Positions 1-60,362 of a stretch of DNA of 62,475 nt are shown here, piece by piece; the first letter of the stretch is position 1, and each line of letters starts with the position of its first letter. The translations under genes and the position numbers were made by a program. Under the pieces are notes generated by a model. The model was not told the origin of the DNA. It did no database searches and worked only from the letters and a program-made list of their open reading frames with translations. Source of the DNA: a virus; IMG/VR virus record IMGVR_UViG_3300049002_000008, positions 1-62,475 of that record. One strand, given 5' to 3'.

Positions 1-127
1 CGGTACGGCGTCGGCTTCCTTCAACTTTGAGAAGGGCGTCTTCATATGCTTCTCCCGCTGCGGTGGGATGAGCATCAAAGAGTTGTACGACGCGGTGAAG
101 GATGAACTAGAGGAGACAGCCCCGCCC
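1..127. repeat. Terminal overlap, copy 1 (identical to 62349-62475). The unit genome is 62,348 bp.
   Basis: Direct comparison of the first and last bases of the window shows an identical 127-mer. Confidence 0.95.
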
Positions 128-2740
128 ACCCCCTCCCCTCGCAGGCAACGCAAGAGCAACGTCCGCAGCATCAACAGCGCCAAGAGCCGCGGCGGCAAAC
201 CGGTAACGCCGTTGCCCACCGAGGGAGACATTCGGAAGTGGCACGACCGGTTGATGTCCAGTAGCTTGCTGCTGAAGCCGCTGCACGAAGCGCGCGGGCT
301 CAACGATGAGACACTGAAGCGGCGCCTCATCGGATGGGACGGAGATCGGTATATGATCCCCGTTCGGGACGCTGATGGCTCTCTGGTGAACGTGCGCCGG
401 TACAAGCCGCGGTCTACCCGAGACAAGATGCTCAACTGGCCGGGCTACGGATCGGCTAACCTGTTCCTGATAGACAACCTGGCGCATTCGGAGATGGTGC
501 TGGTCTGCGAGGGTGAGCTGGACGCCCTTATCGGGGAGCAGTACGGCTTCGCCACGGTGACGGCTACTGCTGGGTCTGGCACCTGGTATGAGCAGTGGAG
601 CAATGCCTTCACCGGCAAGCACGTCTACATCGTCTATGACAACGACCCCGCCGGAGAAGCGGGTGGCCGGAAGGTTGCCAACCATCTGAAGAAGGTGGCC
701 GCGAGCGTGCATGTGGTGCGCCTTCCGGTGGCCGCCAAGCAGGACCTGACGGACTTCTTCGTGGCGCAAGGTCTGGGCAAGCGTGACCTCAAGAGCCTGC
801 TGGAGCAGACCCCTGTCTGGGGCGAGCGCCGGGTGAGCAGATCCACCCGCAACGCCAAGCCAACTTCTGTTGACCTGGAGAGCAGCATGGATAGCGACAA
901 CGCTGGAAAGCTGCTCGAGGTAGCTGCGATGGTGGGCGGGCGGGTGCAGAGCCCGTACCTGATGCCGCGCAAGCTGACCATCCTGTGCGAGCCCGGCTCC
1001 TGGGGCGTCAAGTGCAAGAAGTGCCGAAACGATGACAGCGGTGGCAGTACGCCTATGGAGATCGGGGCTGATGACCCCATCCTGCTGAAGCTGGTGGACA
1101 AAGCCATAGATGACACCGATAGCCTCCTTCGAAAGGAGGCTGGGGTGCAGGCCAACTGTCCGTATGCCGAGATGGAAGTAGAGCGGCACTGGTCCGTAGA
1201 GGAGCTGGTGTTGCTGCCGAACGTTGACGATCCGGGTAGTGACAGCAACATGAAGCAAAGCCGACGGGCCTACAACGTCGGTCCGCACAACACCCCCGTG
1301 AACCAGGTGATGAAGTTTCAAGGAGCCAGCGTGGCTGACCCCCGATCCCGGCGCAGCGTGTTCCAGAGCTGGGAGTGCGAGCCCACCAAGACCAGCCTTG
1401 ACAGCTTCACCATGACCGACGTCGTACGGCGCCGACTGGCTGCATTCCAGACCAAGTCCGGACAGGATCCGATGGCCAAGCTGCGGGCCATCGCTAAGGA
1501 CCTGGCCGCCAATGTGACGCACATTCATGGCCGCACCGACCTGCACATCGCCTATGACCTGGTGTGGCATAGCCTTCTCGACTTCCCCTTCCTCGGCAAG
1601 AACGTGGGTAAGGGCTGGCTTGAGCTGCTCGTGATGGGCGACACCCGTACCGGCAAGAGCGAGGCCGCCCTACGGCTTACCGAGCACTACCAATCGGGGG
1701 TGCTCAAGAGCTGTGAGGGGGCCACCCTGGCTGGCCTGGTGGGTGGCGCCCAGCAGGTGGCCAACAACTGGGTCGTCACCTGGGGGACCATCCCGCTGCA
1801 GGACCGCCGCCTGGTCATTCTCGACGAGGTGAGCGGCATCAAGGACAAGGGCATCATGGAGCAGATGAGCGCTGTGCGCAGCTCTGGCCGAGCCCAGATC
1901 ACCAAGGTGGTAAGCCAGGAGACGAATGCCCGGACCCGCCTCATCTGGATCAGCAATCCAGCGGACGGCCGCCCGCTATCCAGCATGAGCCGCGGCGCCA
2001 TCGACGCCATCGAGGGCCTGGTGCCGAACCCGGAGGACATCGCTCGCTTCGACTTCGCCATGGCGGCGGCCAGTGCGGATGTGAATGCAGACTCCATCAA
2101 CAGTGAGGCTCCGCCGTCGGTCAAGCATCGGTACAACCGCAGGCGGTGCAGCACCCTCGTCAACTGGGCCTGGAGCAGGAAGGCTGACCAGGTGCTGTGG
2201 GAACCCGGGGCGGAGGCCTTCGTGTTGCAGAGCGCCATGAGCCTCGGCGCCAGGTACATCGAGGAGCCGCCGCTGGTGCAGGCGGCCAACGTGCGCATCA
2301 AGCTGGCCCGGCTCGCAGTAGCGGTAGCAGCTCGGCTGTTCAGTAGCCCGGACGGCGAGCAGCTCCTGGTCACCAAGGAGCACGTCAAGTGCGCAGTGCA
2401 GGTGCTTGACATGCTGTACGGGGTCGCCACCTTCGGGTATGCCGAGTACAGCCGAGAAGAGATCGCCAACCGCAAGCAGGCGGAGAAGAACAAGCGGTCG
2501 GTCCGGCGATGGTTGGCTGGACATGAGAGCGTGGCCAAGGCGTTGTTTCAGGTCATGGCGGACACCCACTTCCGCGTTCGGGACTTCGAGGAGTTCGGTG
2601 CGCTAGGCCGAGACCAGAGCCAGGACGCCCTCGGTGAGCTGCTCAAGATGCGCATGGTGCGGCGGCGCAGCCGGGGTTACATCGTCTTGCAGCCCGAGCT
2701 TATTGACGTGCTGAAGAAGCTTCGTAGAGAACTGGAGTAG
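2..2740 (+). CDS. DNA primase / replicative helicase fusion (Toprim + MCM-like AAA+). The 5' end is cut by the window edge; the true start is ATG 62242.
   Basis: Toprim motifs VLVCEGELDALI and IVYDNDPAGEAG. MCM-like Walker A LLVMGDTRTGKSE, Walker B LVILDEVSG, and IMEQMS..ITK..NARTRLIWISNP. The frame is open from base 2 and continuous with 62242-62475 through the overlap. Confidence 0.85.
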   Translation, partial: GTASASFNFEKGVFICFSRCGGMSIKELYDAVKDELEETAPPTPSPRRQRKSNVRSINSAKSRGGKPVTPLPTEGDIRKWHDRLMSSSLLLKPLHEARGLNDETLKRRLIGWDGDRYMIPVRDADGSLVNVRRYKPRSTRDKMLNWPGYGSANLFLIDNLAHSEMVLVCEGELDALIGEQYGFATVTATAGSGTWYEQWSNAFTGKHVYIVYDNDPAGEAGGRKVANHLKKVAASVHVVRLPVAAKQDLTDFFVAQGLGKRDLKSLLEQTPVWGERRVSRSTRNAKPTSVDLESSMDSDNAGKLLEVAAMVGGRVQSPYLMPRKLTILCEPGSWGVKCKKCRNDDSGGSTPMEIGADDPILLKLVDKAIDDTDSLLRKEAGVQANCPYAEMEVERHWSVEELVLLPNVDDPGSDSNMKQSRRAYNVGPHNTPVNQVMKFQGASVADPRSRRSVFQSWECEPTKTSLDSFTMTDVVRRRLAAFQTKSGQDPMAKLRAIAKDLAANVTHIHGRTDLHIAYDLVWHSLLDFPFLGKNVGKGWLELLVMGDTRTGKSEAALRLTEHYQSGVLKSCEGATLAGLVGGAQQVANNWVVTWGTIPLQDRRLVILDEVSGIKDKGIMEQMSAVRSSGRAQITKVVSQETNARTRLIWISNPADGRPLSSMSRGAIDAIEGLVPNPEDIARFDFAMAAASADVNADSINSEAPPSVKHRYNRRRCSTLVNWAWSRKADQVLWEPGAEAFVLQSAMSLGARYIEEPPLVQAANVRIKLARLAVAVAARLFSSPDGEQLLVTKEHVKCAVQVLDMLYGVATFGYAEYSREEIANRKQAEKNKRSVRRWLAGHESVAKALFQVMADTHFRVRDFEEFGALGRDQSQDALGELLKMRMVRRRSRGYIVLQPELIDVLKKLRRELE
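120..145 (+). repeat. Polar C-tract/TCGCAG motif, copy 1
   Basis: ccccgcccaccccctcccctcgcagg, inside the primase gene (read as PSPRR). Confidence 0.8.
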
Positions 2741-2810
2741 CCAGTGGCATTGCTGTAGGGCGATGCTGTTGGTTGGCTTTGCGGTACCCCCGACCAGGCA
2801 AGGAGATGAG

Positions 2811-4375: not shown

Positions 4376-5081
4376 CTGGAACGGCACCGATCCGGTAGTG
4401 GGCATCGACATCGACGGCACCCTCGGCCGGTACCACGAGCACTTCCTGGGCTTCGCCCGGCAGTGGTTCGGCACCAACTCGAACTACGGCACGGAGGGGG
4501 ACAGGGGATGGGCCGGTCCGAAGCTATTGCGGGACCAGAGTCGGTGGTGGGGTGACTTCGACTACGACGGATCCTGCCCGCTCAACGAATACATGGGTGT
4601 CAGCAAGGCCCGCTATCGGCAGTGCAAGCTTGCATACCGGCGCGGAGGGCTCAAGCGCAGCATGCCGGTCTACAAGGGGGCTCGCGAGCTGCTGGTCGGC
4701 CTGCGAAGGAAGGCGTGGGTGGTGCTCTGCACGACCCGACCGTACCTGCACATGGACAATATCGAGCCGGACACGGTGGAGTGGCTGCGCCGGAACAAGA
4801 TGCCGTACGACGCCCTGCTGATGGGCGAGCACAAGTACCGTGACCTCCGGCGTCAGTATGGTGAACGAGTGGCTGCCGTGCTCGACGACGACCCAGCCCT
4901 CCTCTCGCAGGCCCAAAGCCTGAACCCCGCCATCCCGGCGTTGTTCATGGTGCGCAACCACAACACTCACCACTGGGGGGCCTGGCCTTGGTGGGAGGGC
5001 TCCTGCCAGGGGGCTCTCCTTACCCTGACCGAGCACGTGAAGAACGGATCCTGGATGCTGGGCATCCAGCCGAAGAACTAG
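4362..5081 (+). CDS. HAD-superfamily phosphatase / (deoxy)nucleotidase-like
   Basis: VVGIDIDGTLG matches the DxDxT motif I of HAD phosphatases. Confidence 0.6.
   Translation: MTRRSWNGTDPVVGIDIDGTLGRYHEHFLGFARQWFGTNSNYGTEGDRGWAGPKLLRDQSRWWGDFDYDGSCPLNEYMGVSKARYRQCKLAYRRGGLKRSMPVYKGARELLVGLRRKAWVVLCTTRPYLHMDNIEPDTVEWLRRNKMPYDALLMGEHKYRDLRRQYGERVAAVLDDDPALLSQAQSLNPAIPALFMVRNHNTHHWGAWPWWEGSCQGALLTLTEHVKNGSWMLGIQPKN
4892..4911 (+). repeat. Polar C-tract/TCGCAG motif, copy 2
   Basis: cccagccctcctctcgcagg (read as LLSQA). Confidence 0.7.
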
Positions 5082-6406: not shown

Positions 6407-6923
6407 CGTAAACCGTTTGCAGCGTGCGCTGATCCTGCTGGCGCTGTACGTGTGGTTGTGGATTGACACCCTGTCGGACTTCTACTCGACGGTGTGGGAG
6501 AACCGCCGAGGGTTGCTGAGGGGTGCGGCCGACGAGGACTGGCAGCACACCCTCCACGACCTGGCCGAGCCTATCCGGGAGCACCGCCTGCTCCTGGAGG
6601 CCCTCGAGAACAGCGGCGAGCACGCAGCCCTCCCGCCAGCCCCTGTCCTCGCAGTACCCGTCGTGATGGCGGACGGTACGACTATGGTCACGGTTGCTGC
6701 CACCCCAACGCCCCGCAAGCGCAACCACCGGGCGGTGAAGGCGACGCTGATGAAGAGCGGCGCACCGGAGGTGCTGGCCGTAGAGCGCCGGGTGCGCAAG
6801 CAGCTTGACACCGTCGTCCGGGAAGCCATGCTGGCACTGGGCCTGAGCGCCGAGGAAGTGCGGGCGGTGTTGGGCGTGAAGCAGTTCGAGCGCACCCTGG
6901 ACAACGTGATGGGGCTGGCATGA
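6399..6923 (+). CDS. Hypothetical membrane-anchored protein
   Basis: GTG start overlaps the upstream stop. N-terminal TM segment LILLALYVWLWI. Confidence 0.5.
   Translation: MRDVNRLQRALILLALYVWLWIDTLSDFYSTVWENRRGLLRGAADEDWQHTLHDLAEPIREHRLLLEALENSGEHAALPPAPVLAVPVVMADGTTMVTVAATPTPRKRNHRAVKATLMKSGAPEVLAVERRVRKQLDTVVREAMLALGLSAEEVRAVLGVKQFERTLDNVMGLA
6628..6654 (+). repeat. Polar C-tract/TCGCAG motif, copy 3
   Basis: ccctcccgccagcccctgtcctcgcag (read as PVLAV). Confidence 0.7.
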
Positions 6924-7429: not shown

Positions 7430-10400
7430 GCGACGGGTATGTCAACTTGCACGGGCACACCACCTTCAGCGACGGGGACGGCTTCATGCTGCCCGAGGAC
7501 CACGTCGCGCGGGTGGCGGAGCTGGGTCAGCCGGGGCTCGCGCTTACCGAGCACGGAAACATCTCCTCGCATGTGCAGCTCGAGCAGGCGGCCAACAAGG
7601 CGGGTGTGCAGCCTGTGTTCGGATACGAGGCCTACTGCGAGAGCGGGGATCCGCGCGGTCAGCTCAAGCACCACTTGACGCTTCTCGCCGCAACGCAGGA
7701 GGGCTATCGCAACCTCCAGCGGCTCGTTACGGAGAGCTGGAGCAACTTCCGGTACAAGCCCACCACTACTGGCGAGATGCTGGCTGAGCACAGCGACGGC
7801 CTGATCGCGCTGTCCGGGTGCTTGGGCGGGCGTCTGGCTACCGCGATGCTTGGTGGCAAGGGCGAGGCCGAGCATGCGGCAGATCTCAAGGCAGCGTCGC
7901 GAGTAGCGGCCCGTATGCGGGAGGTGCTGGGCGACCGGTACTACCTCGAGATCCAGCCACATCCCACCCTCGCCAAGCAGCATGCTCTCAACCTGGGCAA
8001 TGCCGAGCTGAGCCGCAAGATGGGCATTCCGATGGTGGCGACGGGTGATGTGCACTACCCGCTGCCGGAGCAGCAGGACATCTACCCGCTCCTACACGCG
8101 ATTGCTCGCGGCGGCAACAAGGCCACCCTCGAGGCTGCCTCGCAGGGCTGGGAAGCCACCATCGAGCTGACGTACAAGTCCGCGGCGGATGTTTTGAAGG
8201 GACTGCGAGGAACGGGGCTGGGGCGGCGGGAAGCCGCGCAGGCAGTTGGCGCCTCGTTGGACATTCTCGCGCGCTGCAAGGTGGAGCTACCCCGGCTGCG
8301 CGAGCTGGTGTTCCCGAGCGACATCCCCGGCCCCCGCCTCTTTCGCAGGCTGCTCACGGAGGGCTGGGCGTACCGAGGCCTTAACGAGCTTACCGGGCGG
8401 GAGCGCAAGCGGTACCGGGAGCGAGTGCGATACGAGCTGGATCTCATTGAGAGCAAGGGCTTCACCGATTACTTCTTAGTCGTTGGAGACATGGTGCGGT
8501 GGGCAAAGGACAACGGCATCGCGGTAGGGCCTGCCCGTGGTTCGGCGGCGGCGTCGCTGGTGTGCTACCTGCTCCGCATCACCGAGGTAGAGCCGTTGCA
8601 GTTCCCAACGCTGCTGTTTGAGCGGTTCATCGACATCAACCGGCATGACCTGCCGGACATTGATCTGGACTTCGACGATGAGCTGCGCTGGCGTGTCGAG
8701 GAGTACCTGGTCTCCCGGTACGGCCGGGAGCGCGTCGGTAAGATCGGTACCTTCACCATGTACCGCGGGAAGAACAGCCTGGAGAGCGTAGCCCGGGTGC
8801 ACGGCATCCCCATCACCGCAGTGGAGGCGGTGAAGGACAAGCTCATTGAGCGCTCGTCCGGCGACCTGCGGGGCAACGCCACCATCGAGGACACCATCGC
8901 CATGTTCCCCGACGTGGCAAAGGTCTTCGAACAATGGCCAGCCCTGAAGCAGGCCCAGCGCCTGGAGGGGAACATCAAGGGGTTCTCGGTGCACGCTGCG
9001 GGCATCGTGGTGGCGAACCAGCCCCTGACCGATTCGGTGGCGGTATACCAGCGCACCGACGCCAAGGGCAACCTGATCGGTGAGGTGCTCAGCATCGACA
9101 AGCGGGACGCCGAGTACCTCAACGCCCTGAAGATCGATGTGCTGGGGCTTACCACGATGGGTGTCATCCGCATCATCCTAGAGATGATCGGCAAGGACCT
9201 GGAGTTCTTGTACCGCCTGCCGCTTGACGACGAGGCAGTGTACGAGGGCTTTCGACGCAACGAGGTCATCGGCATCTTTCAGTTCGACGGCCGCGCCATG
9301 CGCTCGGTGAACCGAGAGGTGAAACCGGACACCTTCATGGAGGTGTGCGACATCAACGCCCTGGCCCGCCCCGGGCCGTTGCACTCCGGTGCGGCGGCGG
9401 AGTACATCATGGTGAAGCACGGTAAGAAGAAGGCCGAACGCCACGGGGGCGTCATCGACCACATCACCGAGCACACCAACTACCAGATCGTGTACCAGGA
9501 GCAGATCCTGCAAGTGGTGCGCGAGGTTGGCGGCTTCAGCTGGGAGGAGGCCGCGCTCATCCGAAAGCTGATATCGAAGAAGCAGGGTGAGCAGGCCTTC
9601 AACCGCATGATGGGCAAGTTCATGGACGGGGCTGCGAGCAAGGGGATCGGGGAGGTGGTGGCTGCTCGGATCTGGAAGCAGCTCGTGACGGCGGGCGCGT
9701 ATGCCTTCAACGCTGCGCACTGCGTGTCGTACGGGATGCTGGCCTATTGGACCATGTGGCTGAAGCAGCACCACCCCTTGGAGTTCTATTGCGCCAGCCT
9801 GCAGAAGTACGACCCGAAGACGAAGGGCTTCGATCTGCTGAAGGAGGCGCATGCGAAGAACATCCGCATCCTCCCGCCCCACCCCCTCCGCTCGCAGGCC
9901 ACTTGGAGCATTGAGAAGGGCGCACTGCGGGCTGGGCTGGTGCAGGTGAAGGGAATCGGCGAGAAGCTGGCCGACCAGATGCTGCGCTACCGTGAGGACG
10001 AGCCGGACGTGTACGAGACGCTGAAGGCTCAGAGCTGGGAGGCCTTTGAGCAGATGAGGGGCTTCGGTCCGGCCAAGACGGCTACCATCCAGGAGTTCTG
10101 CGCAGACGAGGACCCCTTCGGCATTCTGCGCATGACGAAGACGCTACGTCGGGTGCGGCAGTGGCTGAAGAACCATGCCGATGACGCGGGGCTGTTCATG
10201 GCGCCGCACCGGAGCGAGGACGTGCCGTACGAAGCCAAGCGTGGCGAGTACTTCTGGGTCGGGGTCGTCCGGGACCGCAACCTGAAGGACATCTACGAGC
10301 TACACCGCTCGCGTACTGGAGAGGAGCTGGATCCGGAAACCGTACGGGAGCCGGAGTATGTCAACTATGCCGTCATCACCGGCGAGGACGAAACCGGCCC

Positions 10401-10566: not shown

Positions 10567-10575
10567 GAGCATCAG

Positions 10576-12035: not shown

Positions 12036-12088
12036 GTCCTGCGGTAATGGCATGGCAAGATGGGGTCACCCAACCCAAAGGAGAAGAC

Positions 12089-12405: not shown

Positions 12406-12427
12406 CCTCCTCCCCCTGGAGTGACAA

Positions 12428-13062: not shown

Positions 13063-14162
13063 TGAACGAGTACGTAGGAGACCCGCACACCCACGGCGGC
13101 GCACCGTGCGCGGACTGGGCGAACTGCATGCTGCCCACCGATGCCCAGCGCCAGGAGATGCCCGACGAGCCATGGCGGATGGACGGGCGACCGGTGCCTG
13201 GCAAGCAGGTGCAGGCCTGGGCGGACGCCGCGCAGTATCGCAGCGAGCCGATGCCGGAGGGTGGGCGCATGACGGTGACGCTGCTGATGGCCACCCCGGA
13301 CCCGCTGGGTGTGGTCGCAGCGCTGTGCGGGATGTACGAGGGGCGGGTGACACGGTCGCTTTCGGAGCTGACGGATCGGCAGCGGCGGCAAGCCCTCGCG
13401 GACATGCTGGAAACCGAGCTGAACGGGGCGCTGTCGGCGGTGCAGTTCCTGTTCCTGGTCGAGGGTGTGGACCGCGCCTTCACGCATCAGGCGGTGCGGC
13501 AGCAGCAAGCCTTCTTCGCGCAGGAGAGCCTGCGGTTCGCGGTGAAAGAGGACTGGTCCGAGGAGATCCCCCTCCCGCCTTACCTCGCAGGCCTGCCGGA
13601 GGACGACCCGATGGTCCGGGTGTGGCGTAAGGCGCTCATCGCGGGCGAGGACGCCTACGGGGCGCTGGTGGCCGCGGGGATGCCCGCCGAGGAGGCCCGC
13701 GGGTTGCTGCCACACGCTGTGACGACGCGCTACTACTGGTCGGTGAACCTGAAGGGGTTGCTGATCGAAGCGGGCAAGCGCACCTGCACCCAGGCGCAGT
13801 TCCATTGGCGCCAGATGTTCGGGCTGGTCGCCAAGGCCCTCCGCGATTACGGAGCCTCGGAGGACTATCTTGGAGAGGCCGGTCCTTCGGCTCTTCATGG
13901 CTGGCAGTTCGCTCTCATCGCCGAGCAGCTCCGGCCGCACTGCTACCAGACCGGCTCCTGCGGCTTCATGGCCAAGTTCGACCGGGGATGCAGTATTCGG
14001 GCGCGCGTCGAGCAGAACGCCAACCTGGGGCGGCCCTCCTCGGATTGGCACCTGCCTGCGGTGGCGCTGGACTTCGGTGTCCCGGGGGCTATCGGCAAGG
14101 TGGTAGTGGAGGCCATCGAACCCCGGGAGTGGGCGGCGGATCCGGGGGCGGCGCGGACGTGA
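13062..14162 (+). CDS. thyX: ThyX-like (flavin-dependent thymidylate synthase fold) protein with a degenerate signature
   Basis: FLVEGVDRAFTHQAVRQQQAFFAQESLRF aligns to the ThyX block F..R....Q..RHR..S....S.RY, but RHR is RQQ, the first Ser is Phe, and RY is RF. Confidence 0.65.
   Translation: MNEYVGDPHTHGGAPCADWANCMLPTDAQRQEMPDEPWRMDGRPVPGKQVQAWADAAQYRSEPMPEGGRMTVTLLMATPDPLGVVAALCGMYEGRVTRSLSELTDRQRRQALADMLETELNGALSAVQFLFLVEGVDRAFTHQAVRQQQAFFAQESLRFAVKEDWSEEIPLPPYLAGLPEDDPMVRVWRKALIAGEDAYGALVAAGMPAEEARGLLPHAVTTRYYWSVNLKGLLIEAGKRTCTQAQFHWRQMFGLVAKALRDYGASEDYLGEAGPSALHGWQFALIAEQLRPHCYQTGSCGFMAKFDRGCSIRARVEQNANLGRPSSDWHLPAVALDFGVPGAIGKVVVEAIEPREWAADPGAART
13568..13591 (+). repeat. Polar C-tract/TCGCAG motif, copy 6
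   Basis: ccccctcccgccttacctcgcagg (read as PLPPYLAG). Confidence 0.75.
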
Positions 14163-14853: not shown

Positions 14854-15389
14854 GCGCCGCGCGGCTCGTCATCGTCGCCATCGACCCCGGGGTGACGTGC
14901 GGATGGGCCATCGTGCGGGTACCGATCAAGCGCCTGCTCGAGCTGGGGCAGGTGGGCTCGGTGTCCTACATGCAGGTCTCGACCGGACAGTTTCGAGAAG
15001 GGAGTACGTCGGCGAACGTGGACCGGGCGCTGGCCCTGAAACGGACGGCGTACGAGGAGCTGGCGGACGAGGGCGACGTCATGGTGTGCGTACACGAGGG
15101 GTTCACGTTGCGGATGCTCTCGAAGGATCCGGAGCTGCTCGAACCCGCCCGCTTCCTCGCAGTGTGGGCGGACAGGTTCGCCCCGCCGCGGCCGGAGTTC
15201 CCGCTGCCGGTTGAAGAGCAGGACCCCTCGCTCATGAACACCATCGGCGATGACAGGCTGCGGCTCTGGGGTCTGTGGCAACGGGGGCGCGAGCACGGGA
15301 GGGCGGCGCTCAAGCACGCCCTGGTGTACTGCCGCAGGTTCAGCGACCAGAAGGTCGTACGGCTGCGGGCTGGATACGAGGAGGAGTGA
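14850..15389 (+). CDS. RuvC-like Holliday junction resolvase
   Basis: ATGA overlap upstream. N-terminal RLVIVAIDPGVTCGWAIV (catalytic Asp in the first strand). Confidence 0.6.
   Translation: MSAARLVIVAIDPGVTCGWAIVRVPIKRLLELGQVGSVSYMQVSTGQFREGSTSANVDRALALKRTAYEELADEGDVMVCVHEGFTLRMLSKDPELLEPARFLAVWADRFAPPRPEFPLPVEEQDPSLMNTIGDDRLRLWGLWQRGREHGRAALKHALVYCRRFSDQKVVRLRAGYEEE
15144..15162 (+). repeat. Polar C-tract/TCGCAG motif, copy 7
   Basis: cccgcccgcttcctcgcag (read as ARFLAV). Confidence 0.65.
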
Positions 15390-16933: not shown

Positions 16934-16936
16934 TCC

Positions 16937-17717: not shown

Positions 17718-17732
17718 AACGGGGGTGGGTTG

Positions 17733-27585: not shown

Positions 27586-27591
27586 TCCGGT

Positions 27592-27632
27592 GGGGCGGGC
27601 TTCTGACTCTTCCCCGTAGCTGAGCCCGCCCC
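27592..27632 (+). terminator. 10-bp stem-loop after the capsid gene (attenuator/terminator-like, no T-tract)
   Basis: ggggcgggct (27592-27601) pairs with agcccgcccc (27623-27632). Confidence 0.4.
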
Positions 27633-27648
27633 GCCCTCCCCTTCGCAG
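27625..27648 (+). repeat. Polar C-tract/TCGCAG motif, copy 11 (intergenic)
   Basis: cccgccccgccctccccttcgcag, between the capsid gene and the 27661 gene. Confidence 0.8.
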
Positions 27649-27660
27649 TTAGGAGACGGC

Positions 27661-45461: not shown

Positions 45462-45504
45462 GCGCTTCTTAGAGATCTCAGATAGAATTGGTCTGGTGGA
45501 CAAT

Positions 45505-45527
45505 CGCCCTGCCCTCTCCCTCGCAGG
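45505..45527 (+). repeat. Polar C-tract/TCGCAG motif, copy 17 (intergenic)
   Basis: cgccctgccctctccctcgcagg. Confidence 0.8.
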
Positions 45528-47162: not shown

Positions 47163-47630
47163 ATGACCAGCAACATGAAGCTCCGTCTGGCCCTTACCGC
47201 CATCGTGTGCGGCGCCGCGTTCTACGTCAGCTACCGGCACATCGTCACGGTCGCCCTGGCCAGCGGGAACACCGCCGACACCGCCTTCGTGTACCCGCTG
47301 ACCATAGACGCCATGATCCTCGTCAGCGCGGTCACCCTGGTGGCCAGCACGGGCGTCAACAAGATGGCCAAGCTGTGGGCCATGATCGGCCGGTACTTCG
47401 GCTTCACCGCTACGATCTACTGCAACCTGGCCGCTGGGCACTTCACCAGCGTGGCTGGCGCCATCGTCAACATGATCCCCGCGCTGGCCCTGATCATCAC
47501 GGTCGAACTGCTGGTGTACGGCTGGAAGGCCACCCCCGCCGCCCGTCCCTTGCAGGCCCGCAAGGCCACCCCCTCCAAGAAGGCCACCGCCAAGGCCACC
47601 AGCCCCGCCAGGCTGGCCAGCGTCAAGTAA
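47163..47630 (+). CDS. DUF2637-like multi-pass membrane protein
   Basis: Four hydrophobic segments and a basic C-terminal tail. AAFYVSYRHI pattern. Confidence 0.5.
   Translation: MTSNMKLRLALTAIVCGAAFYVSYRHIVTVALASGNTADTAFVYPLTIDAMILVSAVTLVASTGVNKMAKLWAMIGRYFGFTATIYCNLAAGHFTSVAGAIVNMIPALALIITVELLVYGWKATPAARPLQARKATPSKKATAKATSPARLASVK
47531..47556 (+). repeat. Polar C-tract motif, copy 18 (variant CTTGCAGG)
   Basis: cacccccgccgcccgtcccttgcagg. Confidence 0.55.
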
Positions 47631-47667: not shown

Positions 47668-47776
47668 AGACGACGTAGGCCGATGGTAGGCCCGAGGGGC
47701 ACACCTCGACCTACCCCGGGGCGCCCAGGCCCGCAGAATCGATCTGAGCGGGCTGCGAGAGAGCGGGCGGGACGCC

Positions 47777-47849
47777 TTGCATCTCATCGGACGCTGTGCC
47801 ATAGTGGTCCCAGCGCGGTGCACGGCACCGCCGGACAGCCGGGAGGCAT
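47777..47849 (+). promoter_or_regulatory. Early cassette E
   Basis: TTGCAT-N19-TAGTGG. GACAGCCGGGAGGCAT (47834-47849) lies 1 nt before ATG 47851. Confidence 0.55.
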
Positions 47850-48245: not shown

Positions 48246-48584
48246 ATGAACGTTCTCGTCACCGCCACCAGCACCGCGACCCCCGCCACCTTCCTCGCAG
48301 ACCTGGCCAGCGGCACTGTGGTCCTGCACAAGGAGCGCGACAACGGCACCACCCGCCGCATCCACTTCCTGGCCCCGGGCACCGAGGCCCGCGAGCTGGC
48401 CGAGTACGTCGAGGCGCAGCGCGACAACGGCCTGACCATGAAGGCCATCTCCGCCGAGTTGCACCTCAGCACCGCTGCTACCCGGCGCGCGCTGAACGAC
48501 TTGATCCTCACCCGCGAGTTCGAGGACATGGACGCCGAGGAAATCGAGGGCCTGCTGTTGGGCGCCGAGGACCTGGCCGCCTGA
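48246..48584 (+). CDS. Early helix-turn-helix DNA-binding protein (112 aa)
   Basis: LTMKAISAELHLSTAATRRALNDL is HTH-like. Confidence 0.5.
   Translation: MNVLVTATSTATPATFLADLASGTVVLHKERDNGTTRRIHFLAPGTEARELAEYVEAQRDNGLTMKAISAELHLSTAATRRALNDLILTREFEDMDAEEIEGLLLGAEDLAA
48280..48300 (+). repeat. Polar C-tract/TCGCAG motif, copy 19
   Basis: cccccgccaccttcctcgcag (read as PATFLAD). Confidence 0.65.
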
Positions 48585-49907: not shown

Positions 49908-50714
49908 ATGAACACCACCACCACCGCGCAGGGCGTACGCTGCGGCAACCACGGCCGCGGGGCGCACGTCTACCACGCGAACAGCGCCGAGGTCAGGTTC
50001 TGCTACCAGAGCCAGACGCGTCCAGTCAGCGCCCCGCCCGCCGCCGCTCCCTCGCAGGCGCCCCGCAACGCGGACGAGGCCCGCAGCGCCAGCATGCAGC
50101 GCCTGGCCAACCAGACCAGCCCGTTCTTCGAGCGCCACGCCAGCGAGGGGCGGGTGCGCCTGATCACCGCGCTGGTTGAGGAGCACCTCACGCAGCCCGA
50201 GGACGGGGTGCTGGCCGAGGCCATCGTCAAGGCGCTGCACGAGGGCATGAGCGACAGCTTCGCCAAGAAGGTCATCGAACAGTTGCTGGTACTGAAGACG
50301 CAGCGCAAGGCGGCGGCGGCCAAGGCCAGCTACGCCAGCGAGAACACCGCGGCCAGCGCCAGCGCGGAGGCCCGCAAGCTGGTGGCCCGTGTGATGGGCG
50401 AGGCCAACGAGGGCAACTTCGCGATCGAGGTCGACGGCAAGACCCGGTTCTACCGCATCAGCAAGCGGGGCAAGAACAGCCGGACCCCCGGTAGCTGGAA
50501 GATCCAGGAGCGGGTCACCGACATGTTGCTGCCGCGAGCGAATGCCATGCTGGGCACGGTATGCGCGGCCATCCTGGAGATGGGTGTCGAGGCCAGTGGG
50601 CGCCTGTTCGCGGACCGGCTGCACCAGTGCCGCACTTGCGGCGCCAGCCTGACCGATGACACCGGCAACCCGTACTACGAGATGGGCTACGGCCCGGAGT
50701 GCGGCGGCAAGTAG
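49908..50714 (+). CDS. Early protein with an N-terminal CGNH motif and a C-terminal zinc-ribbon-like motif (268 aa)
   Basis: GVRCGNHGRGAHVYHANSAEVRFCY. C-terminal CRTCGASLTDDTGNPYYEMGYGPEC. Confidence 0.6.
   Translation: MNTTTTAQGVRCGNHGRGAHVYHANSAEVRFCYQSQTRPVSAPPAAAPSQAPRNADEARSASMQRLANQTSPFFERHASEGRVRLITALVEEHLTQPEDGVLAEAIVKALHEGMSDSFAKKVIEQLLVLKTQRKAAAAKASYASENTAASASAEARKLVARVMGEANEGNFAIEVDGKTRFYRISKRGKNSRTPGSWKIQERVTDMLLPRANAMLGTVCAAILEMGVEASGRLFADRLHQCRTCGASLTDDTGNPYYEMGYGPECGGK
50031..50058 (+). repeat. Polar C-tract/TCGCAG motif, copy 20
   Basis: gccccgcccgccgccgctccctcgcagg (read as PPAAAPSQA). Confidence 0.75.
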
Positions 50715-51886: not shown

Positions 51887-52358
51887 CCCACGCGCCTGCT
51901 TGGCGCACATCGACAGCAGCGGCGCATGCCGCTTGACCGCAGAAAGGGCAGACATGAAGGCCAAGCCGAAGGCGCACAAGCCGCGCGTGGCCAAGGTGGG
52001 CAAGGACGGCATGATTGAGCCGATCAGCGAGCTGAACCGCAAGCACCTGCGCATCGCGCTGGCGCGGCACGTGCACCCCAGCGACGTTGAGCGGGCGGTC
52101 AAGCGGCTTGTGAAAGTGAACGGTCTCCGGCCCCTCCGCCCCGCCTCGCAGGCCTGCATGGGCAAGAGCATTCTGGAGATGCTGTGGGATGAGTTGGACG
52201 CCATCGTCGAGCGGCTCATGGCTGGCGGGGCAGCCGAGGAGGACAAGGGTAAGGCGCAGGGCGTCGCCTACGCCATCGCCGTCATCGAGAACCCCTACCT
52301 GCCCAACGTCGAGCGCATCCGCGACGAGGCTATGGACCGCTGGGAGGCCGACCAGTGA
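51867..52358 (+). CDS. Hypothetical protein (163 aa)
   Basis: ATG 51867, with a 20-nt overlap onto the upstream gene. Confidence 0.5.
   Translation: MPKWLADPRACLAHIDSSGACRLTAERADMKAKPKAHKPRVAKVGKDGMIEPISELNRKHLRIALARHVHPSDVERAVKRLVKVNGLRPLRPASQACMGKSILEMLWDELDAIVERLMAGGAAEEDKGKAQGVAYAIAVIENPYLPNVERIRDEAMDRWEADQ
52131..52152 (+). repeat. Polar C-tract/TCGCAG motif, copy 21
   Basis: cccctccgccccgcctcgcagg (read as LRPASQA). Confidence 0.7.
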
Positions 52359-53803: not shown

Positions 53804-54241
53804 ATGATCACACTTGGCGATTACTCGTGGTTGGCTGGCGTGCTGGACATCAAGGCCCGCTGGAGCAGCGAGCGCACTAGCATCAGCGTGGGCACGCCAT
53901 CCCAGGCCCTCGCCCTCGCAGTAGCCGACCTGCTCGGTGTGGCCGCTGTAGAGAGTCGAGGCGTGGTGGGCGGGTACGACCGCAAGGGCTGCGCTACGCA
54001 CTGCCCCGGCGAGCACGTGCACGTCGAGCAGGCCAGGCCCAGCTACACCGTGCGGGTGACAGGCATTGCGGCGGTCATCGTGGCGGGGACCCTGCACACC
54101 CGCTTGCGGGCTGCGGCGCCCGAGGCGCAGGAGCTGGTTCGGTCCTATCTCGCGGGAACACGGCCCAACAGCGGTATGGTTACCACCGTAGTTGACCGCA
54201 TGGCCCGACTGGGCTGGGACGTACCGGAGTGGGCGCGGTAG
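53804..54241 (+). CDS. LAGLIDADG-like single-motif protein (possible homing endonuclease or DNA-binding relic)
   Basis: N-terminal YSWLAGVLDIKA resembles the LAGLIDADG helix. 145 aa. Confidence 0.3.
   Translation: MITLGDYSWLAGVLDIKARWSSERTSISVGTPSQALALAVADLLGVAAVESRGVVGGYDRKGCATHCPGEHVHVEQARPSYTVRVTGIAAVIVAGTLHTRLRAAAPEAQELVRSYLAGTRPNSGMVTTVVDRMARLGWDVPEWAR
53901..53921 (+). repeat. Polar C-tract/TCGCAG motif, copy 22
   Basis: cccaggccctcgccctcgcag (read as QALALAV). Confidence 0.65.
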
Positions 54242-54366: not shown

Positions 54367-56314
54367 GCTGCGCGGCAACCGCATCGTTGTGGAGTTCGTC
54401 AGTGCTCGGGACGAGGCGTCCACGCTGGTGCGTGGTGGGCGTTGGCTGAAGGGCTCGCCGGAGTACAGCTACCCGCTGAGCATTGCCAAGTGCCAGGAGA
54501 TGCGCCGCGCGTGGGGCAAGGACCTGCACGTTGAGCGAGCCCTCGGCGATTGGTACCGCACAGCTACCACAGCTCGCGACCAGCAGGCCGAGAGGGCAGA
54601 GGCTACCGAAGCCACCAGCCTGCCGAACCTAGAGCGCCTAGCGCCCGAGCTGCTGGCCTGGATTGGCCCCGACCAGCGGGCAGCGGCCAGCTGGATCGCA
54701 CACGCTTACGAAGGCGCTGGCATCCTCGCGGACGAGCCGGGTCTCGGCAAGACCTACTCGACGGTAGCTGGCTTGTACGAGCTGAACCCCGTCGGCCCCG
54801 TCCTCATCGTGTGCCCGAAGATCAGCGTGAAGACAGTATGGCAACGGCACCTCTCGGGCGGTCCCTGGCCGGTCTACGCCGCCCGGGGCACGCGCGCCCA
54901 GCGCCAGCAGGTGCTCGACGCCTTCTTCGCTGACCGCGCGTCTACCAAGGTGCTCATCGTAGTGGCCGAGATGCTGCGCGCGCAGGGAACCCTCGATAAG
55001 TTGGGCGGTGGCAAGGGCACCCGCTTCCGGGTCACCGGCTTCGACTATCCCGAGCTGTTCGGCATCACCTGGACGGTGGCGGTACTGGACGAGAGCCAGA
55101 AGCTGCTCGGAGCCCTCACCATCACCAAGGGCAACCTGATGAGCCATGGCCTGCGACACCTGGACGTGGCGCCCGCACCACTGGGCCTGCGCCTGATGGT
55201 GTCGGGAACCCCGTTCGGTCGAGGTGGCGACGTGGAGGGCTTCTTCGGTCACCTGCACTGGGGCTGGCCGAAAGAGTTCACCGCCTTCTGGCGCTGGGCC
55301 GACGAGAACTTCGAAGTGACCGAGGACAGAGTGTTCATCCGGGGCGGCCACGGGGCGACCCAGATCGTGCGCAAGGTGGGCCGGTTGAAGGGCGGCAAGA
55401 GCGAGGAGCAGTTCTTCAAAGACCTAGGGTCGCGCGTGATGCGGCGCACCCTGGAGGAGGTGAGCCCAGCACACCGAGGTCTGCGTGGTTACGAAGAGGT
55501 CGTGTGTGAGATGACCGACAAGCAGCGAGCGCAGTACTCCGCATTCGTGGCAAACGCCGAGGTGGCCGTAGAAGGTGGCATCATCACCGCAATCGGCAGC
55601 CTGGCGGAGATGACCCGGGCTCGCCAGCTCGCCAACGGCGTCCTGCGAAAGGAGGGGGAGGGGAAGGGCTCTGTCCGGTACACCGGTGAGTCCGGAAAGC
55701 TCGATGCCGTGATGCAGCGCCTCGAGGAGATGGGCCTGCGCGGCACCCCGAACCCCAACCGTCGAAAGGTGGTCATCGCCAGCCAGTGGAACGCCTATCT
55801 CGAGGCGCTCTGCCAACGGCTCGACATGGAGGGCACCCCGTACCATCTGATGACCGGTAGTAGCAGTGACGTCGCGCGGGATCGTATGATGGACGAGTTC
55901 CAGGCCGAAGGAGGGCCTCGTCTGTTCATTATGAACGGACGGGCGGGCGGCTTCAGCATCACCTTGGACGCCGCCGACTGGCTGTTCCAGCTGGACGAGA
56001 TGTTCCCACCGGAAGCCAACGAGCAGCTCCACCGGCGCATCTTTCGGCGCAGCCGGGTTCACGAAGCGCGGGTGGTGTACTTCCGCAGCGAAGACAGCAT
56101 CGACGTGAACATCGCCGGGGATGTGGCCGTCACATTGGCCGAGCAGTTGAAGGTGCTCGACGCCCGCCGCGGCCTCAACACCGTGCGCGAGCTGCTCCGT
56201 ACCACCAGCGACGGCCGACGGCCCTACCTGGGCAGTACCAAGGCGCGCAAGTGCCCGCAGTGCGGGGCGCGGCGCAACATGTTCCACGAGCCTGGATGCG
56301 AGGGAGAGAAATGA
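54356..56314 (+). CDS. SNF2-family helicase/translocase
   Basis: Motif I ADEPGLGKT, motif II AVLDESQKL, and C-terminal helicase motifs (GGFSITL, QLHRRIFR). Confidence 0.8.
   Translation: MKARLRGNRIVVEFVSARDEASTLVRGGRWLKGSPEYSYPLSIAKCQEMRRAWGKDLHVERALGDWYRTATTARDQQAERAEATEATSLPNLERLAPELLAWIGPDQRAAASWIAHAYEGAGILADEPGLGKTYSTVAGLYELNPVGPVLIVCPKISVKTVWQRHLSGGPWPVYAARGTRAQRQQVLDAFFADRASTKVLIVVAEMLRAQGTLDKLGGGKGTRFRVTGFDYPELFGITWTVAVLDESQKLLGALTITKGNLMSHGLRHLDVAPAPLGLRLMVSGTPFGRGGDVEGFFGHLHWGWPKEFTAFWRWADENFEVTEDRVFIRGGHGATQIVRKVGRLKGGKSEEQFFKDLGSRVMRRTLEEVSPAHRGLRGYEEVVCEMTDKQRAQYSAFVANAEVAVEGGIITAIGSLAEMTRARQLANGVLRKEGEGKGSVRYTGESGKLDAVMQRLEEMGLRGTPNPNRRKVVIASQWNAYLEALCQRLDMEGTPYHLMTGSSSDVARDRMMDEFQAEGGPRLFIMNGRAGGFSITLDAADWLFQLDEMFPPEANEQLHRRIFRRSRVHEARVVYFRSEDSIDVNIAGDVAVTLAEQLKVLDARRGLNTVRELLRTTSDGRRPYLGSTKARKCPQCGARRNMFHEPGCEGEK
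55642..55668 (-). repeat. Polar motif, inverted (minus-strand) copy A
   Basis: The + strand reads cctgcgaaaggagggggaggggaaggg. Its reverse complement is cccttcccctccccctcctttcgcagg. Confidence 0.65.
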
Positions 56315-56544
56315 CAACCGTAGTAGCTGCGTTCTTCGGCAGCCTGTCCGGCGTAGTGATCGGGGGCGGGCTGATGTGGCTGGTATACCTGCAACCGCGC
56401 CAGAAGCAGGTCGAGAGGGTTCGCCCAGCACCCCGGCCCTCTCCTTCGCAGGGGGCGCCGGAGCCTGGCTTTGTGCCGAGCGACAAGCCCGTGACGGTGG
56501 GCAAGGTGGGTTTCGGGCGCGTGAAGAAGGCCACCAGACTCTGA
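56311..56544 (+). CDS. Small membrane protein (77 aa)
   Basis: ATGA overlap upstream. TM segment VVAAFFGSLSGVVIGGGLMWLVYL. Confidence 0.5.
   Translation: MTTVVAAFFGSLSGVVIGGGLMWLVYLQPRQKQVERVRPAPRPSPSQGAPEPGFVPSDKPVTVGKVGFGRVKKATRL
56431..56452 (+). repeat. Polar C-tract/TCGCAG motif, copy 23
   Basis: ccccggccctctccttcgcagg (read as PRPSPSQG). Confidence 0.75.
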
Positions 56545-58813: not shown

Positions 58814-59019
58814 CTTGGCGCCAGTTCCTGAGCGTCCTGCTGGTCGCGGCAGGGCTGGCGTTGTACGGCCTCAGCGGCACACCAGGCGCTCAGAAGGTAC
58901 CACCGGCCACTCCGGGCGGCTCCTGCCCTTCGCTCGCAGCCGTGGGCGCCTGGGGCGACCGAGCCTACATCTGTCAGACGGACCCCGAGGACATGGTCCT
59001 GCGCTGGCGCCCGCTCTGA
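58810..59019 (+). CDS. Small secreted/membrane protein (69 aa)
   Basis: GTGA overlap upstream. N-terminal TM segment FLSVLLVAAGLALYGL. Confidence 0.45.
   Translation: MTWRQFLSVLLVAAGLALYGLSGTPGAQKVPPATPGGSCPSLAAVGAWGDRAYICQTDPEDMVLRWRPL
58921..58939 (+). repeat. Polar C-tract/TCGCAG motif, copy 24
   Basis: tcctgcccttcgctcgcag (read as CPSLAA). Confidence 0.6.
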
Positions 59020-59091
59020 GCGCATCGGAAAGACCACGTGGTACGCGTGCGCGCTAGGCTTGGTGCTCTGCCAGCACAGAAGGGAACTATC

Positions 59092-59526
59092 GTGGCTCAG
59101 ATGCCTAAACCCACGGAGTTGCAGCTCCGCCAGCACGCCCTCGACCGCGCCGTGACCGATGGCATCGTGCACGCTGTCGGACAGGAGATCATCGACTACC
59201 TGGATCCATCCCAGGGGGTAGACGGTGGCACTCTTTACGCCGAGGCACTAGCCAAGGCGGTGACCAAGGCTGCTGACGTGTTCGTCGAGTACCTGCGCGG
59301 CCCCGCTGAGGAGCCCGCGTTCAAAGTGACCGACACGCTCGAGGCCAACCTGGGTCTCGCCACCACGCGGGAGCTTCTCGAAGAGATCCGTGCTCGTCTG
59401 GACACGATCGGGAAGCAGAGTGTCGGCAATGATCTGGTCGCGTGGTCCACCGACCTTACCGAGGCAGACCTCAACTACCGCACGGCGGACACGGCGGGCG
59501 CGCTGCATCACACCCCGGAAGTCTGA
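59092..59526 (+). CDS. Hypothetical protein; start uncertain (GTG 59092 or ATG 59101; ORF open from 59038)
   Basis: agaaggga lies 6 nt before GTG 59092. Confidence 0.5.
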   Translation: MAQMPKPTELQLRQHALDRAVTDGIVHAVGQEIIDYLDPSQGVDGGTLYAEALAKAVTKAADVFVEYLRGPAEEPAFKVTDTLEANLGLATTRELLEEIRARLDTIGKQSVGNDLVAWSTDLTEADLNYRTADTAGALHHTPEV

Positions 59527-60362
59527 TGGTGGCCTCCCGCCGCCGCTCACCTCGCAGACGCCCGAGCGCTATCGTTGCGCTGCAAGGAGGTGCGCGGCCG
59601 GTCTACCGGAACTGGCTGGTGTACGGCAACCCGGGCGTAGGCAAGACGGTGTTCGCTGGCACCGCACCGAAGGGCCTCATCCTGTCATACGACATCGAGG
59701 GCACCGAGAGCGCCCGCAACATGGGCAGCACCGCCGACGAGTGGCAGGTGGAGACCTGGGTCGAGTACCTCGAGGCCCTGGAGTACTTCCAGGAGGGACC
59801 CGGCTGTACGGAGTACGACTGGGTCATCAGCGACAACATCAGTACCCTCGAGGAGCACGCCTGGGCGTACACGATGGGCGAAGGGCGCAAGCGCAACAAG
59901 AAGCGTCCGGAGTTCAAACGGGCCATCGGCGACTACCCTATCGTGTGGGACATGATGAAGCGGCACGTGTCCGACTTCAACCGGTTGCCCATCCACGTGC
60001 TCTACACCGCGAACACCATGGTCCTCGACAGCTTCGATACCGAGACCGAGGAGGAGCGCAGCCAGCTCATGCCCCTCGTCGGCAGTCCGAAGCGCGGGGA
60101 TACCTCCGCCCGCATCTGTGCCAGCGTCAGCCTCGTAGGGCTGCTTCGTACGGTGCGGGTGCAGACCAAGACCGGCCAGAAGCGCATCCGCCGCCTGTTG
60201 CTGGAGGAGAGCGACTACTGGATCGCCAAGAGCCGGTACCCGGCGATGGGCGAGTACCTCAACCGCCCCAGCGTTGAAGCCATGCAAAAAGTGGCCACCA
60301 CTGGGGTACCCCTAAAACCGGCCAAGCGTTCTAGAAGCGCGGCCAAGACCGAGGAGAAGTAA
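59526..60362 (+). CDS. RecA-fold AAA ATPase (Sak4-like recombination protein candidate)
   Basis: Walker A LVYGNPGVGKTVF. Walker B-like WVISDNIS. Confidence 0.6.
   Translation: MVASRRRSPRRRPSAIVALQGGARPVYRNWLVYGNPGVGKTVFAGTAPKGLILSYDIEGTESARNMGSTADEWQVETWVEYLEALEYFQEGPGCTEYDWVISDNISTLEEHAWAYTMGEGRKRNKKRPEFKRAIGDYPIVWDMMKRHVSDFNRLPIHVLYTANTMVLDSFDTETEEERSQLMPLVGSPKRGDTSARICASVSLVGLLRTVRVQTKTGQKRIRRLLLEESDYWIAKSRYPAMGEYLNRPSVEAMQKVATTGVPLKPAKRSRSAAKTEEK
59533..59557 (+). repeat. Polar C-tract/TCGCAG motif, copy 25
   Basis: cctcccgccgccgctcacctcgcag (read as SRRRSPRR). Confidence 0.7.

Follow-up and report, generated by a model that had tools for sequence, protein, structure and literature searches.

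A C-rich tract followed by CGCAG recurs at roughly even intervals in the genomes of an uncultivated actinobacteriophage and its relatives

Dispersed, strand-biased sequence motifs of phages (the nick sites of T5, tf and phiKMV, Chi sites and stoperators) are, to our knowledge, few, and even after decades most of them lack a settled function. A Chi site has a defined sequence of 5 to 8 nt; Chi and the FtsK-orienting polar sequences (KOPS) are defined 5- to 8-mers that serve enzymes of the host as recognition sequences and are over-represented in its chromosome. Cluster A mycobacteriophages carry stoperators, numerous asymmetric sites that occur genome-wide and are biased with respect to the direction of transcription (PMC9283540, PMC6550527). 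In the Rembedalsseter/tf group, the nick motif [AT]ACT[GA]TGAC gives rise to 13 nicks, and the motifs are concentrated at one side (bioRxiv 10.1101/2024.10.22.619576). Among primases, T7 gp4 is established to bind a short specific site, 5'-GTC-3', and to copy the template that lies 5' of it (PMC2910064). Here we describe an element of another form in IMG/VR virus record IMGVR_UViG_3300049002_000008, positions 1 to 62,475 (this whole stretch of 62,475 nucleotides is called the window). The element is a C-rich tract of ~19 nt followed by an invariant CGCAG, ~25 nt in all. A preliminary description had listed 25 copies on the plus strand and knew of no described element of such form. That statement stands: Rfam covariance models gave 0 matches at gathering thresholds, and the literature yielded analogues only. 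The element is real and non-random, and selection on it acts on DNA and not on protein; it is a strand-specific, cis-acting DNA signal of a phage clade, kept at roughly even intervals.

The anatomy of the element was derived from 156 copies pooled from the window and eleven related loci. Counted from the C of CGCAG, it extends from about -19 to about +6, and it carries more than 20 bits of information. The tract is 65% C. Its last 7 positions are 87% pyrimidine, with T making up 67% of the non-C bases there, and are a true pyrimidine tract. Downstream of CGCAG there is a weak preference for G and C. The window holds 21 to 25 copies on the plus strand and 5 to 10 on the minus strand depending on the rule, ~30 overall. 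When at least 11 C are required in the 16 nt before TCGCAG, 15 copies are found on the plus strand (0.17 expected) and 4 on the minus strand (0.07 expected). With at least 10 C the counts are 20 and 9, against 0.18 and 0.36 in dinucleotide shuffles; under this same rule, permuting codons within genes, or synonymous codons with every protein sequence kept, gave at most 6 and 5 copies, both maxima being inflated by the unshuffled non-genic parts. Relaxing the core to CGCAG (at least 10 C) yields 21 and 10 copies against 1.2 and 2.1 in shuffles. The composite counts are thus far above those of every shuffle, the comparison that the preliminary description had proposed. Bare CTCGCAG, by contrast, occurs 23 times on the plus and 18 times on the minus strand, only ~2-fold over shuffles, and not about 20 against 8 as first counted. 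The enrichment resides in the 25-nt composite of tract and core, not in the short core. Enrichment or asymmetry of k-mers alone does not expose the element, as the top asymmetric words are codon-driven.

The copies carry few other features. No flanking composition signal and no AT-rich (unwinding) segment was found around them, and a search for hairpins or complementary arms around all copies returned energies equal to those of controls, except at the copy that follows the capsid gene (see below). The canonical G-quadruplex/i-motif criterion, four runs of at least three G or C, identifies 3 of the 30 copies only, and the element was rejected as a structure of that kind.

We next examined how the copies are distributed. 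Successive plus-strand copies lie 0.6 to 4.8 kb apart, with a mean of 2.5 kb, the same values as first reported. This spacing is more even than random: its coefficient of variation (CV) is 0.416, against 0.94 for random placement, and none of 20,000 simulated sets was as even (P<5e-5). The same is true when the simulated sites are confined to stretches close to gene ends. Plus-strand sets taken alone are likewise even in the relatives R1 (CV 0.30, P=4e-4), L157 (0.37, P=0.005), L156 (0.23, P=0.02) and L154 (0.46, P=0.025), while in L160 it is the minus set that is even (CV 0.35, P=0.006). Pooling both orientations gives an even set in L160 (P=0.001) and L154 (P=0.004); in the window, R1, L156 and L157 the plus set alone is more even than the pooled one.

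The preliminary description had presented the element as single in orientation, with only two comparable copies on the minus strand. A plus-strand bias is present, at 25:5 when sites are scored with a position weight matrix (PWM) trained mostly on plus sites (binomial P=3e-4), but it was overstated: a neutral rule gives 21:10 (P=0.07), and at least five minus copies are as good as plus ones, with ~5 weaker. These five (cores starting at 4707, 8209, 42178, 55649 and 61348) score 23 to 28 bits, on a par with the plus copies, and include copies conserved among relatives. A minus copy often has a plus copy nearby, at a distance of 100 to 250 bp. In the replication regions of relatives the two orientations are about equal (8 plus and 8 minus in L160, 9 and 8 in L154, 10 and 10 in R1), whereas the plus orientation dominates in structural regions (7 and 2 in L173, 7 and 3 in L167, 3 and 0 in L165). 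The difference between early and late regions, 53% versus 69% on the plus strand, is only a trend (Fisher P=0.16). Because orientations are about equal in the replication regions of relatives and the neutral rule gives P=0.07, strict single orientation is not a defining property of the element.

Selection at the level of DNA follows from several observations together: copies occupy all three reading frames (TCG-CAG 8, CTC-GCA 9, CGC-AGN 4), some lie between genes, the counts are lost under synonymous shuffling, and some sites are made from rare codons, as at 8342, which is built with TTT and AGG. This bears out the original proposal that conservation acts on DNA or RNA rather than on protein, in favour of DNA. 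Within coding sequence (CDS), a conserved LPP(H/D)P peptide underlies some sites, and a DnaE alignment places the DnaE sites over existing Pro/Leu/Ser-rich peptides with no insertions. Since copies occupy orthologous positions, turn over by substitution and brought no insertions into DnaE, the element is kept by selection on DNA and is no mobile insertion.

The window belongs to a family of many uncultivated phages from soil and other metagenomes, with contigs of 55 to 65 kb and DnaE proteins 62 to 86% identical in a protein search. We compared DnaE-centred and capsid-centred loci of these relatives with a PWM-free test that asks which 5-mers follow C-rich tracts. CGCAG emerged in nearly every sampled member with DnaE at least 62% or capsid protein at least 53% identical; the core is preceded by T in the subclade of the window and by C in the others. 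More distant relatives lack the element. Among them are L182 and L183, which are GC-matched, and Microbacterium phage Hager, whose set of replication genes is the same; de novo motif searches in more distant relatives found no homologous tract-plus-core element. Scans of viral and genome collections with exact 14-mers and 15-mers gave mostly chance singletons; against 185,579 genomes, the 15-mer had scattered single matches in unrelated genomes and no host-like enrichment among the matches listed. By these comparisons the element appears restricted to one phage clade. The check in related genomes proposed at the outset therefore came out in two ways, with the element present across the clade and its polarity near 1:1 in replication regions.

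Individual positions are well preserved. Against R1, at ~75% nucleotide identity, all 12 of 12 plus copies and at least 4 minus copies lie at orthologous positions. Nine relatives were sampled across the region of the dnaE copy at 9891, and at least 7 of them have a counterpart at the same position; in L157 it is absent at threshold, and L155 has a nearby copy that lies on the other strand. Other sites have come and gone. Site 15156 occurs in the window only, its relatives having GGTGCGGTGGCTGGCGG, ~8 substitutions and no indel away; site 8342 is present in the window and L157 and absent at the same codons in R1 and L156; and sites 48294 and 47549 have each decayed in one of two genomes, the window and R1. 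In these alignments, sites on both strands appear largely conserved in position, with turnover. Per-position conservation pooled across relatives is not clearly above that of the flanks, because of site turnover and coding constraint.

All 25 plus-strand coordinates first listed hold the element, 23 with a YTCGCAG core and two with variant cores. Copies are named here by the start of the core, with the span in brackets. The plus-strand series begins at 138 (119..145; CTCGCAG, 30.2 bits), in frame CGC-AGN of the primase-helicase gene and with an orthologous copy in R1. It continues with 4904 (4885..4911) in an NT5C-like gene, where the whole site is conserved in R1, L156 and L157, and with 6648 (6629..6655), 8342 (8323..8349; TTCGCAG) in dnaE, 9891 (9872..9898) in dnaE over the conserved peptide ILPPHP, 13584 (13565..13591) in thyX, 15156 (15137..15163) in a RuvC-like gene, and 18362 (18343..18369). 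Copy 21472 (21453..21479; TTCGCAG) lies at the 3' end of the portal gene, 23331 (23312..23338) in a MuF-like gene, and 27642 (27623..27649; TTCGCAG) in the intergenic space just 3' of the capsid gene. Then follow 31774 (31755..31781), with an orthologous copy in L001, two copies in the tape-measure gene, 35058 (35039..35065; TTCGCAG) in its 5' part and 37754 (37735..37761) in its 3' part, the variant CCCGCAG at 39460 (39441..39467; 14.1 bits), and 42340 (42321..42347). Copy 45520 (45501..45527) is intergenic, ~10 to 30 nt downstream of a promoter-like TAGAAT hexamer. The degenerate core CTTGCAG at 47549 (47530..47556) reads CTCGCAG at the same position in R1, where in turn the core of 48294 (48275..48301) has decayed to CTCGCCG. 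The series ends with 50051 (50032..50058), 52145 (52126..52152), 53915 (53896..53922), the intergenic copy 56445 (56426..56452; TTCGCAG) after the SNF2 gene, a weak intergenic copy at 58933 (58914..58940; 14.7 bits), and 59551 (59532..59558). By the gene calls used here, 26 of the 30 copies lie within CDS and four are intergenic (27642, 45520, 56445 and 58933), where two had been reported.

On the minus strand, core start 4707 (4700..4726; 23.9 bits) lies 197 bp from plus copy 4904 and is conserved in R1. Core start 8209 (8202..8228; 26.7 bits), in dnaE, lies 133 bp from 8342 and is conserved in R1 and L156, and 42178 (42171..42197; 24.7 bits) lies 162 bp from 42340. The copy at 55649 (55642..55668; 23.5 bits), in the SNF2 gene, is nearly identical in R1, and the intergenic copy at 61348 (61341..61367; 28.3 bits) has orthologues in R1 and L016. 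Requiring at least 10 C among the 16 nt that precede CGCAG adds a weaker minus copy with its core start at 47759 (47752..47778). The same rule, which yields ~2 sites per strand by chance, gives further weak candidates with minus cores starting at 930, 15781, 22251 and 22589 and a plus core at 46126.

The copy after the capsid gene, 27642, is the most widely conserved, at the same position in 12 of 12 relatives examined. It is also the only one with a pairing partner; no other copy has a comparable one. A G-rich 5' arm that follows the capsid stop codon pairs with the distal half of the C tract, which serves as the 3' arm, in a 14-bp stem (hairpin 27589..27635, plus strand), with the pyrimidine part and CGCAG left unpaired. 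The duplex has an energy of -31.1 kcal/mol, beyond the 1st percentile of controls. In 11 of the 12 relatives a G:C stem of 9 to 14 bp is present, and pairing is kept while the arm sequences vary. These folds are single-sequence folds; the RNAalifold consensus is weak because the arms misalign.

Bases 1-127 of the window are identical to 62349-62475, and the window is therefore a complete genome, assembled circularly, of 62,348 bp plus a 127-bp terminal duplicate; the alignment with a relative (L016/R1) crosses the junction. Its GC content is 65%, and essentially all genes are on the plus strand. The source is an uncultivated soil actinobacteriophage. Megablast against 50,697 deposited phage records found no close relative, and only distant protein relatives turned up; the nearest isolates are Microbacterium and Streptomyces phages, with DnaE and capsid protein only 46 to 49% identical in amino acids. 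A gene at 68..2740 on the plus strand encodes a primase-helicase with Toprim and MCM-like parts (Toprim_2, 2e-7; MCM P-loop, 1.7e-5). Other genes identified encode a UDG-family protein, DnaE (7426-10566), ThyX-like, dCTP-deaminase-like and NT5C-like proteins, a SNF2 helicase, a PD-(D/E)XK nuclease and an AAA_24 protein. No tRNA genes and no Rfam families were found in the window, and a non-exhaustive scan of ~40 window proteins showed no repressor or integrase family.

Strand asymmetry, more than 20 bits of information and selection for even coverage are robust properties. Together they point to a cis-acting signal, most plausibly one used in replication, whose reader would be an enzyme that works its way over the full length of the phage DNA. 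Two processes are the best candidates, T5-type nicking and lagging-strand priming, and spacing and geometry slightly favour priming. The reading that we rank first, tentatively and by analogy with known primases, is that the copies are preferred primer-start sites on the template strand. The invariant CGCAG would be the part recognised by the phage Toprim/MCM-like primase-helicase, a candidate reader proposed by inference only, and the 19 nt of pyrimidine- and C-rich sequence 5' of it would template a primer that is rich in G and very stable. Forks that move with transcription would use the copies on the coding strand, and forks that move the opposite way those on the other strand. The plus-strand spacing is far more even than random and falls within the range of Okazaki fragments. 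The specific part sits at the 3' end, with a composition-type part of about primer length 5' of it, an arrangement that would resemble that of known primases. Being compact, with no hairpin and no flanking composition signal, the element could be read on single-stranded or locally opened DNA. Its coding-strand bias fits, as the coding strand is the lagging-strand template when forks are co-directional with transcription. With more than 20 bits of information the element would be essentially absent from a host genome, which fits a phage-specific enzyme, and the selection on DNA seen in indel-free substitutions, rare codons and loss under synonymous shuffling also speaks for priming. Okazaki-fragment starts might then be encoded in the genome, by phage-specific primer-start signals of ~25 nt that selection keeps every 1.5 to 3 kb on one or both template strands, and not be stochastic; we regard this as possible but doubtful, on the same analogy.

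Several observations weigh against priming. We know of no primase that needs a site of ~25 nt, known sites being 3 to 5 nt long. Plus and minus copies are interleaved, and no switch in orientation marks an origin or terminus. In subclade B (L160 and L154), pooling both orientations gives a set no less even than that of either strand alone, which would also fit a reader indifferent to orientation. Homologues of the primase-helicase accompany the motif in 8 of 8 motif-bearing loci but are also found in 5 of 11 motif-less relatives. Because distant relatives with homologous primase-helicase and DnaE genes lack the element, it is not intrinsic to the replication module. We also searched for a clade-specific reader: the candidates at 5092-5565, 10576-11304 and 14826-15389 have no relatives of solved structure. 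The last, a protein of 187 aa with no Pfam match that hosts the window-specific site 15156, looks RuvC-like: its family alignment shows an N-terminal VVVWFDPGxTTGWA and, as is usual in RuvC-like resolvases, conserved E, H and D. It was set aside as the clade-specific reader, a RuvC-like resolvase being annotated in motif-less Hager as well.

The same evidence can be read in other ways. Motif-directed single-strand nicks in virion or replicating DNA, made by a phage nickase as in T5, phiKMV-like and tf-like phages, represent the only documented class of dispersed, clade-conserved, strand-biased and mostly intragenic motifs in lytic phages, and restriction to one clade fits an accessory function. 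We nevertheless think nicking somewhat unlikely, as known nick motifs are defined sequences and not a degenerate tract with a core, are not evenly spread (those of the tf group lie at one side) and are unrelated in sequence to the element; nor was a nickase candidate found, the clade-specific proteins being the RuvC-like resolvase and proteins of unknown function. Even spacing would also be explained by a coverage function, and strand-specific sets by polar recognition, if the copies were a Chi-like self mark that attenuates a helicase-nuclease, either host AdnAB/RecBCD or the phage SNF2 and PD-(D/E)XK proteins. The phage encodes SNF2, PD-(D/E)XK and AAA_24 proteins, the high information content would tell phage DNA from high-GC host DNA, and the complement of the element is G-rich like Chi and KOPS. 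Chi, however, is a defined sequence whereas the core of the element alone is barely enriched, the same helicase and nuclease genes occur in motif-less relatives, and the genome matches listed include none with host-like 15-mer enrichment. We judge such a mark unlikely, and equally so the corollary that phage DNA ends, such as rolling-circle tails, are spared while unmarked DNA is degraded. The Chi reading of the preliminary description fails on form. Its KOPS fit fails as a family assignment, as the octamer GGGNAGGG of KOPS and FtsK recognition sequences (FRS) is contained in only 9 of 30 copies, an overlap that speaks for a self mark.

An orientation-blind reader is the starting point of a further explanation, in which the copies are evenly spaced duplex binding sites for a phage DNA-binding protein that organises or protects the genome or acts as a transcription roadblock, comparable to stoperators. 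The even pooled sets of L160 and L154 speak for it. The plus set alone is nonetheless more even than the pooled set in four genomes including the window, several minus copies lie so close to a plus copy that they would be redundant for such a reader, and a degenerate tract is unusual for base-specific duplex recognition. Most copies are in coding sequence, and the protein scan, within its limits, showed no repressor or integrase. We hold duplex binding to be quite unlikely, together with its implication that strand bias is a by-product of coding constraints. On similar grounds the element was rejected as a stoperator, the orientations being mixed in relatives. At the RNA level the copies might be processing sites, Rho or antitermination signals or anti-Shine-Dalgarno-like elements in long sense transcripts: most lie on the sense strand, C-rich and G-poor RNA resembles Rho-loading sites, copy 45520 lies in a putative early leader, and copy 27642 directly follows a conserved stem-loop. 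The rut-like or anti-Shine-Dalgarno-like function first suggested is very unlikely, however, because antisense copies are equally good and conserved: the minus copies are antisense to all genes, keep orthologous positions and are about as frequent as plus copies in early regions of relatives, and there is no Rfam match and no conserved structure save at one site. Last, C-rich sense DNA is to be expected of a genome with high GC content and linkers rich in Pro, Ser, Leu and Ala, and some sites overlie conserved LPP(H/D)P, so that composition, codon usage or Pro-rich peptides could have given rise to the copies as a by-product; or else the element could be a small mobile repeat of the repetitive extragenic palindromic (REP) or miniature inverted-repeat transposable element (MITE) type. 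This is hardly credible. Neither codon-permuted nor synonymous shuffles come near the observed count, which effectively refutes a by-product; all three frames, either strand and intergenic space hold copies; and the GC-matched distant relatives have none. The REP/MITE class was rejected on the absence of a palindrome, of terminal repeats and of indels against homologues, and on the orthologous positions.

Other motifs and genes of the window and its relatives were recorded alongside. TAGAAT occurs four times (22306, 25081, 45483 and 50786) and TAAGAT seven times (including 56591 and 57623), exclusively on the plus strand; the six hexamers at 22306, 25081, 45483, 50786, 56591 and 57623 lie in intergenic gaps with a similar G+C-rich upstream context. 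From their sequence and position they are probably -10 promoter hexamers distinct from the element. The element itself has no -10-like part and was rejected as a promoter, these separate hexamers occupying intergenic positions. Where the structural/lysis block gives way to the rightward early block, a hairpin at ~45411-45460 (GGGGATCCGTG...CACGGATCTCC) followed by a T-rich run looks like an intrinsic terminator, after which comes the TAGAAT at 45483. An intergenic (AG)n microsatellite of ~11 units at ~16955-16976 is flanked by the hexamers TACGAT, TAGTAT and TACTAT. In Hager (L189), a one-strand intergenic motif, AATTCTCA-N8-GTAGCG, at 2011, 9799, 20889, 22287 and 27650 is probably that phage's own promoter set.

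A dense nucleotide-metabolism cluster (2763-3626, 4362-5081, 5834-6406, 11301-12035, 12428-12829, 13062-14162 and 16424-16933) encodes a Rossmann-like phrog_8720 protein, an NT5C-like nucleotidase, a UDG-family protein, a short-chain dehydrogenase, a DUF4406/deoxyribosyltransferase-like protein, an extended ThyX-like protein and a dCTP-deaminase-like protein, with an Asn-synthase-like protein added in some relatives. Such a set of genes is a hint that the nucleotide pool or the bases of the DNA may be modified. The open reading frame 28449-30887 (812 aa), which lies between the genes for capsid and tail, has internal repeats, and segments of relatives align at several places within 28988-30229. 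In L155 (NCBI metagenome GCA_020064125.1) the DnaE and ThyX-like genes, 10001-14053 and 16501-18240, are interrupted by inteins (Pfam Intein_splicing).

Two further repeats came from other genomes. Four low-GC distant relatives, L174, L175, L176 and L177 (capsid 46% identical, GC 44%), carry a different dispersed octamer, (A)CCCCTGCCC(A), whose complement GGGCAGGG is the E. coli KOPS/FRS octamer. It occurs 14 to 16 times in 21 kb, against 0.3 expected, on both strands and at positions conserved among the four contigs, often as plus-then-minus pairs 50 to 400 bp apart, and it is unevenly spaced (CV ~1). The loci with multiple matches in the k-mer scans are unrelated palindromic repeats in metagenome-assembled genomes (MAGs) of Chloroflexota. 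There, the repeat ...CCTCTCCCCCGACCCCTCCCCT-CGCA-GGGGAGGGGAG... occurs several times per contig (L211 and L201, the latter a Dehalococcoidia MAG, and L267 and L205, Ktedonobacterales MAGs); it is REP-like, and the contigs show no protein similarity to the phage.

One reason why the element matters is that it allows selection for even coverage to be demonstrated statistically, in a large clade whose phages are uncultivated and have come to light in metagenomes alone. The clade offers over 100 diverged genomes with site turnover, so that spacing and orientation can be put to comparative tests, and the Toprim/MCM-like protein offers a single candidate enzyme for direct biochemical testing. Should the priming reading be true, these would be the first genome-encoded, evenly spaced priming sites in a dsDNA virus, which would be categorically new; more generally, the element would be a new self-marking 'punctuation' read by phage replication or recombination machinery. 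Signals of either kind, for priming or for nicking, would reveal the means by which a phage labels its own DNA so that one particular strand is processed, and would provide a highly specific recognition sequence for a nickase or primase.

Set beside the systems named at the outset, the element is a new form, a degenerate C tract with a 5-nt core, in a small class of dispersed strand-biased phage signals. With stoperators it shares numerous asymmetric sites across the genome, biased relative to transcription, whereas stoperators are defined 13-bp sequences, largely intergenic, in temperate phages with an immunity repressor, and the element is mostly intragenic with a degenerate tract. Chi, KOPS/FRS and the element are alike in being polar, in having a G-rich complement strand and in covering the whole replicon; they part ways in the short core, barely enriched by itself, and in the lack of host-like enrichment among the matches listed. 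Primase sites, whether the T7 gp4 trinucleotide 5'-GTC-3', the trinucleotides of DnaG or the GTG of pRN1, would be akin in being strand-specific and read on the template strand. Both would have a short specific part 3' of the copied template, and the element's spacing is that of Okazaki fragments; known primase sites, however, are 3 to 5 nt long and dense by chance, whereas the element is 25 nt long and selected at ~25 places. Priming signals of the G4 type are hairpins of ~100 nt, while the element has no structure. The nick motifs of tf/Rembedalsseter, phiKMV-like phages and T5 are, like the element, dispersed, many-fold enriched and conserved across a clade at low nucleotide identity, lying mostly inside CDS and mostly, not only, on the coding strand. 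The element shares the genomic behaviour of nick motifs: clade-wide enrichment and conservation, location in CDS at about the coding density, and strand bias. It differs in pairing a degenerate tract of ~19 nt with a 5-nt core where nick motifs are defined 9- to 20-mers, in a consensus unrelated to TACTRTGMC, with nicks at the element only putative, and in copies that are ~2 to 3 times more numerous and evenly spaced, where the motifs of the tf group cluster at one side.

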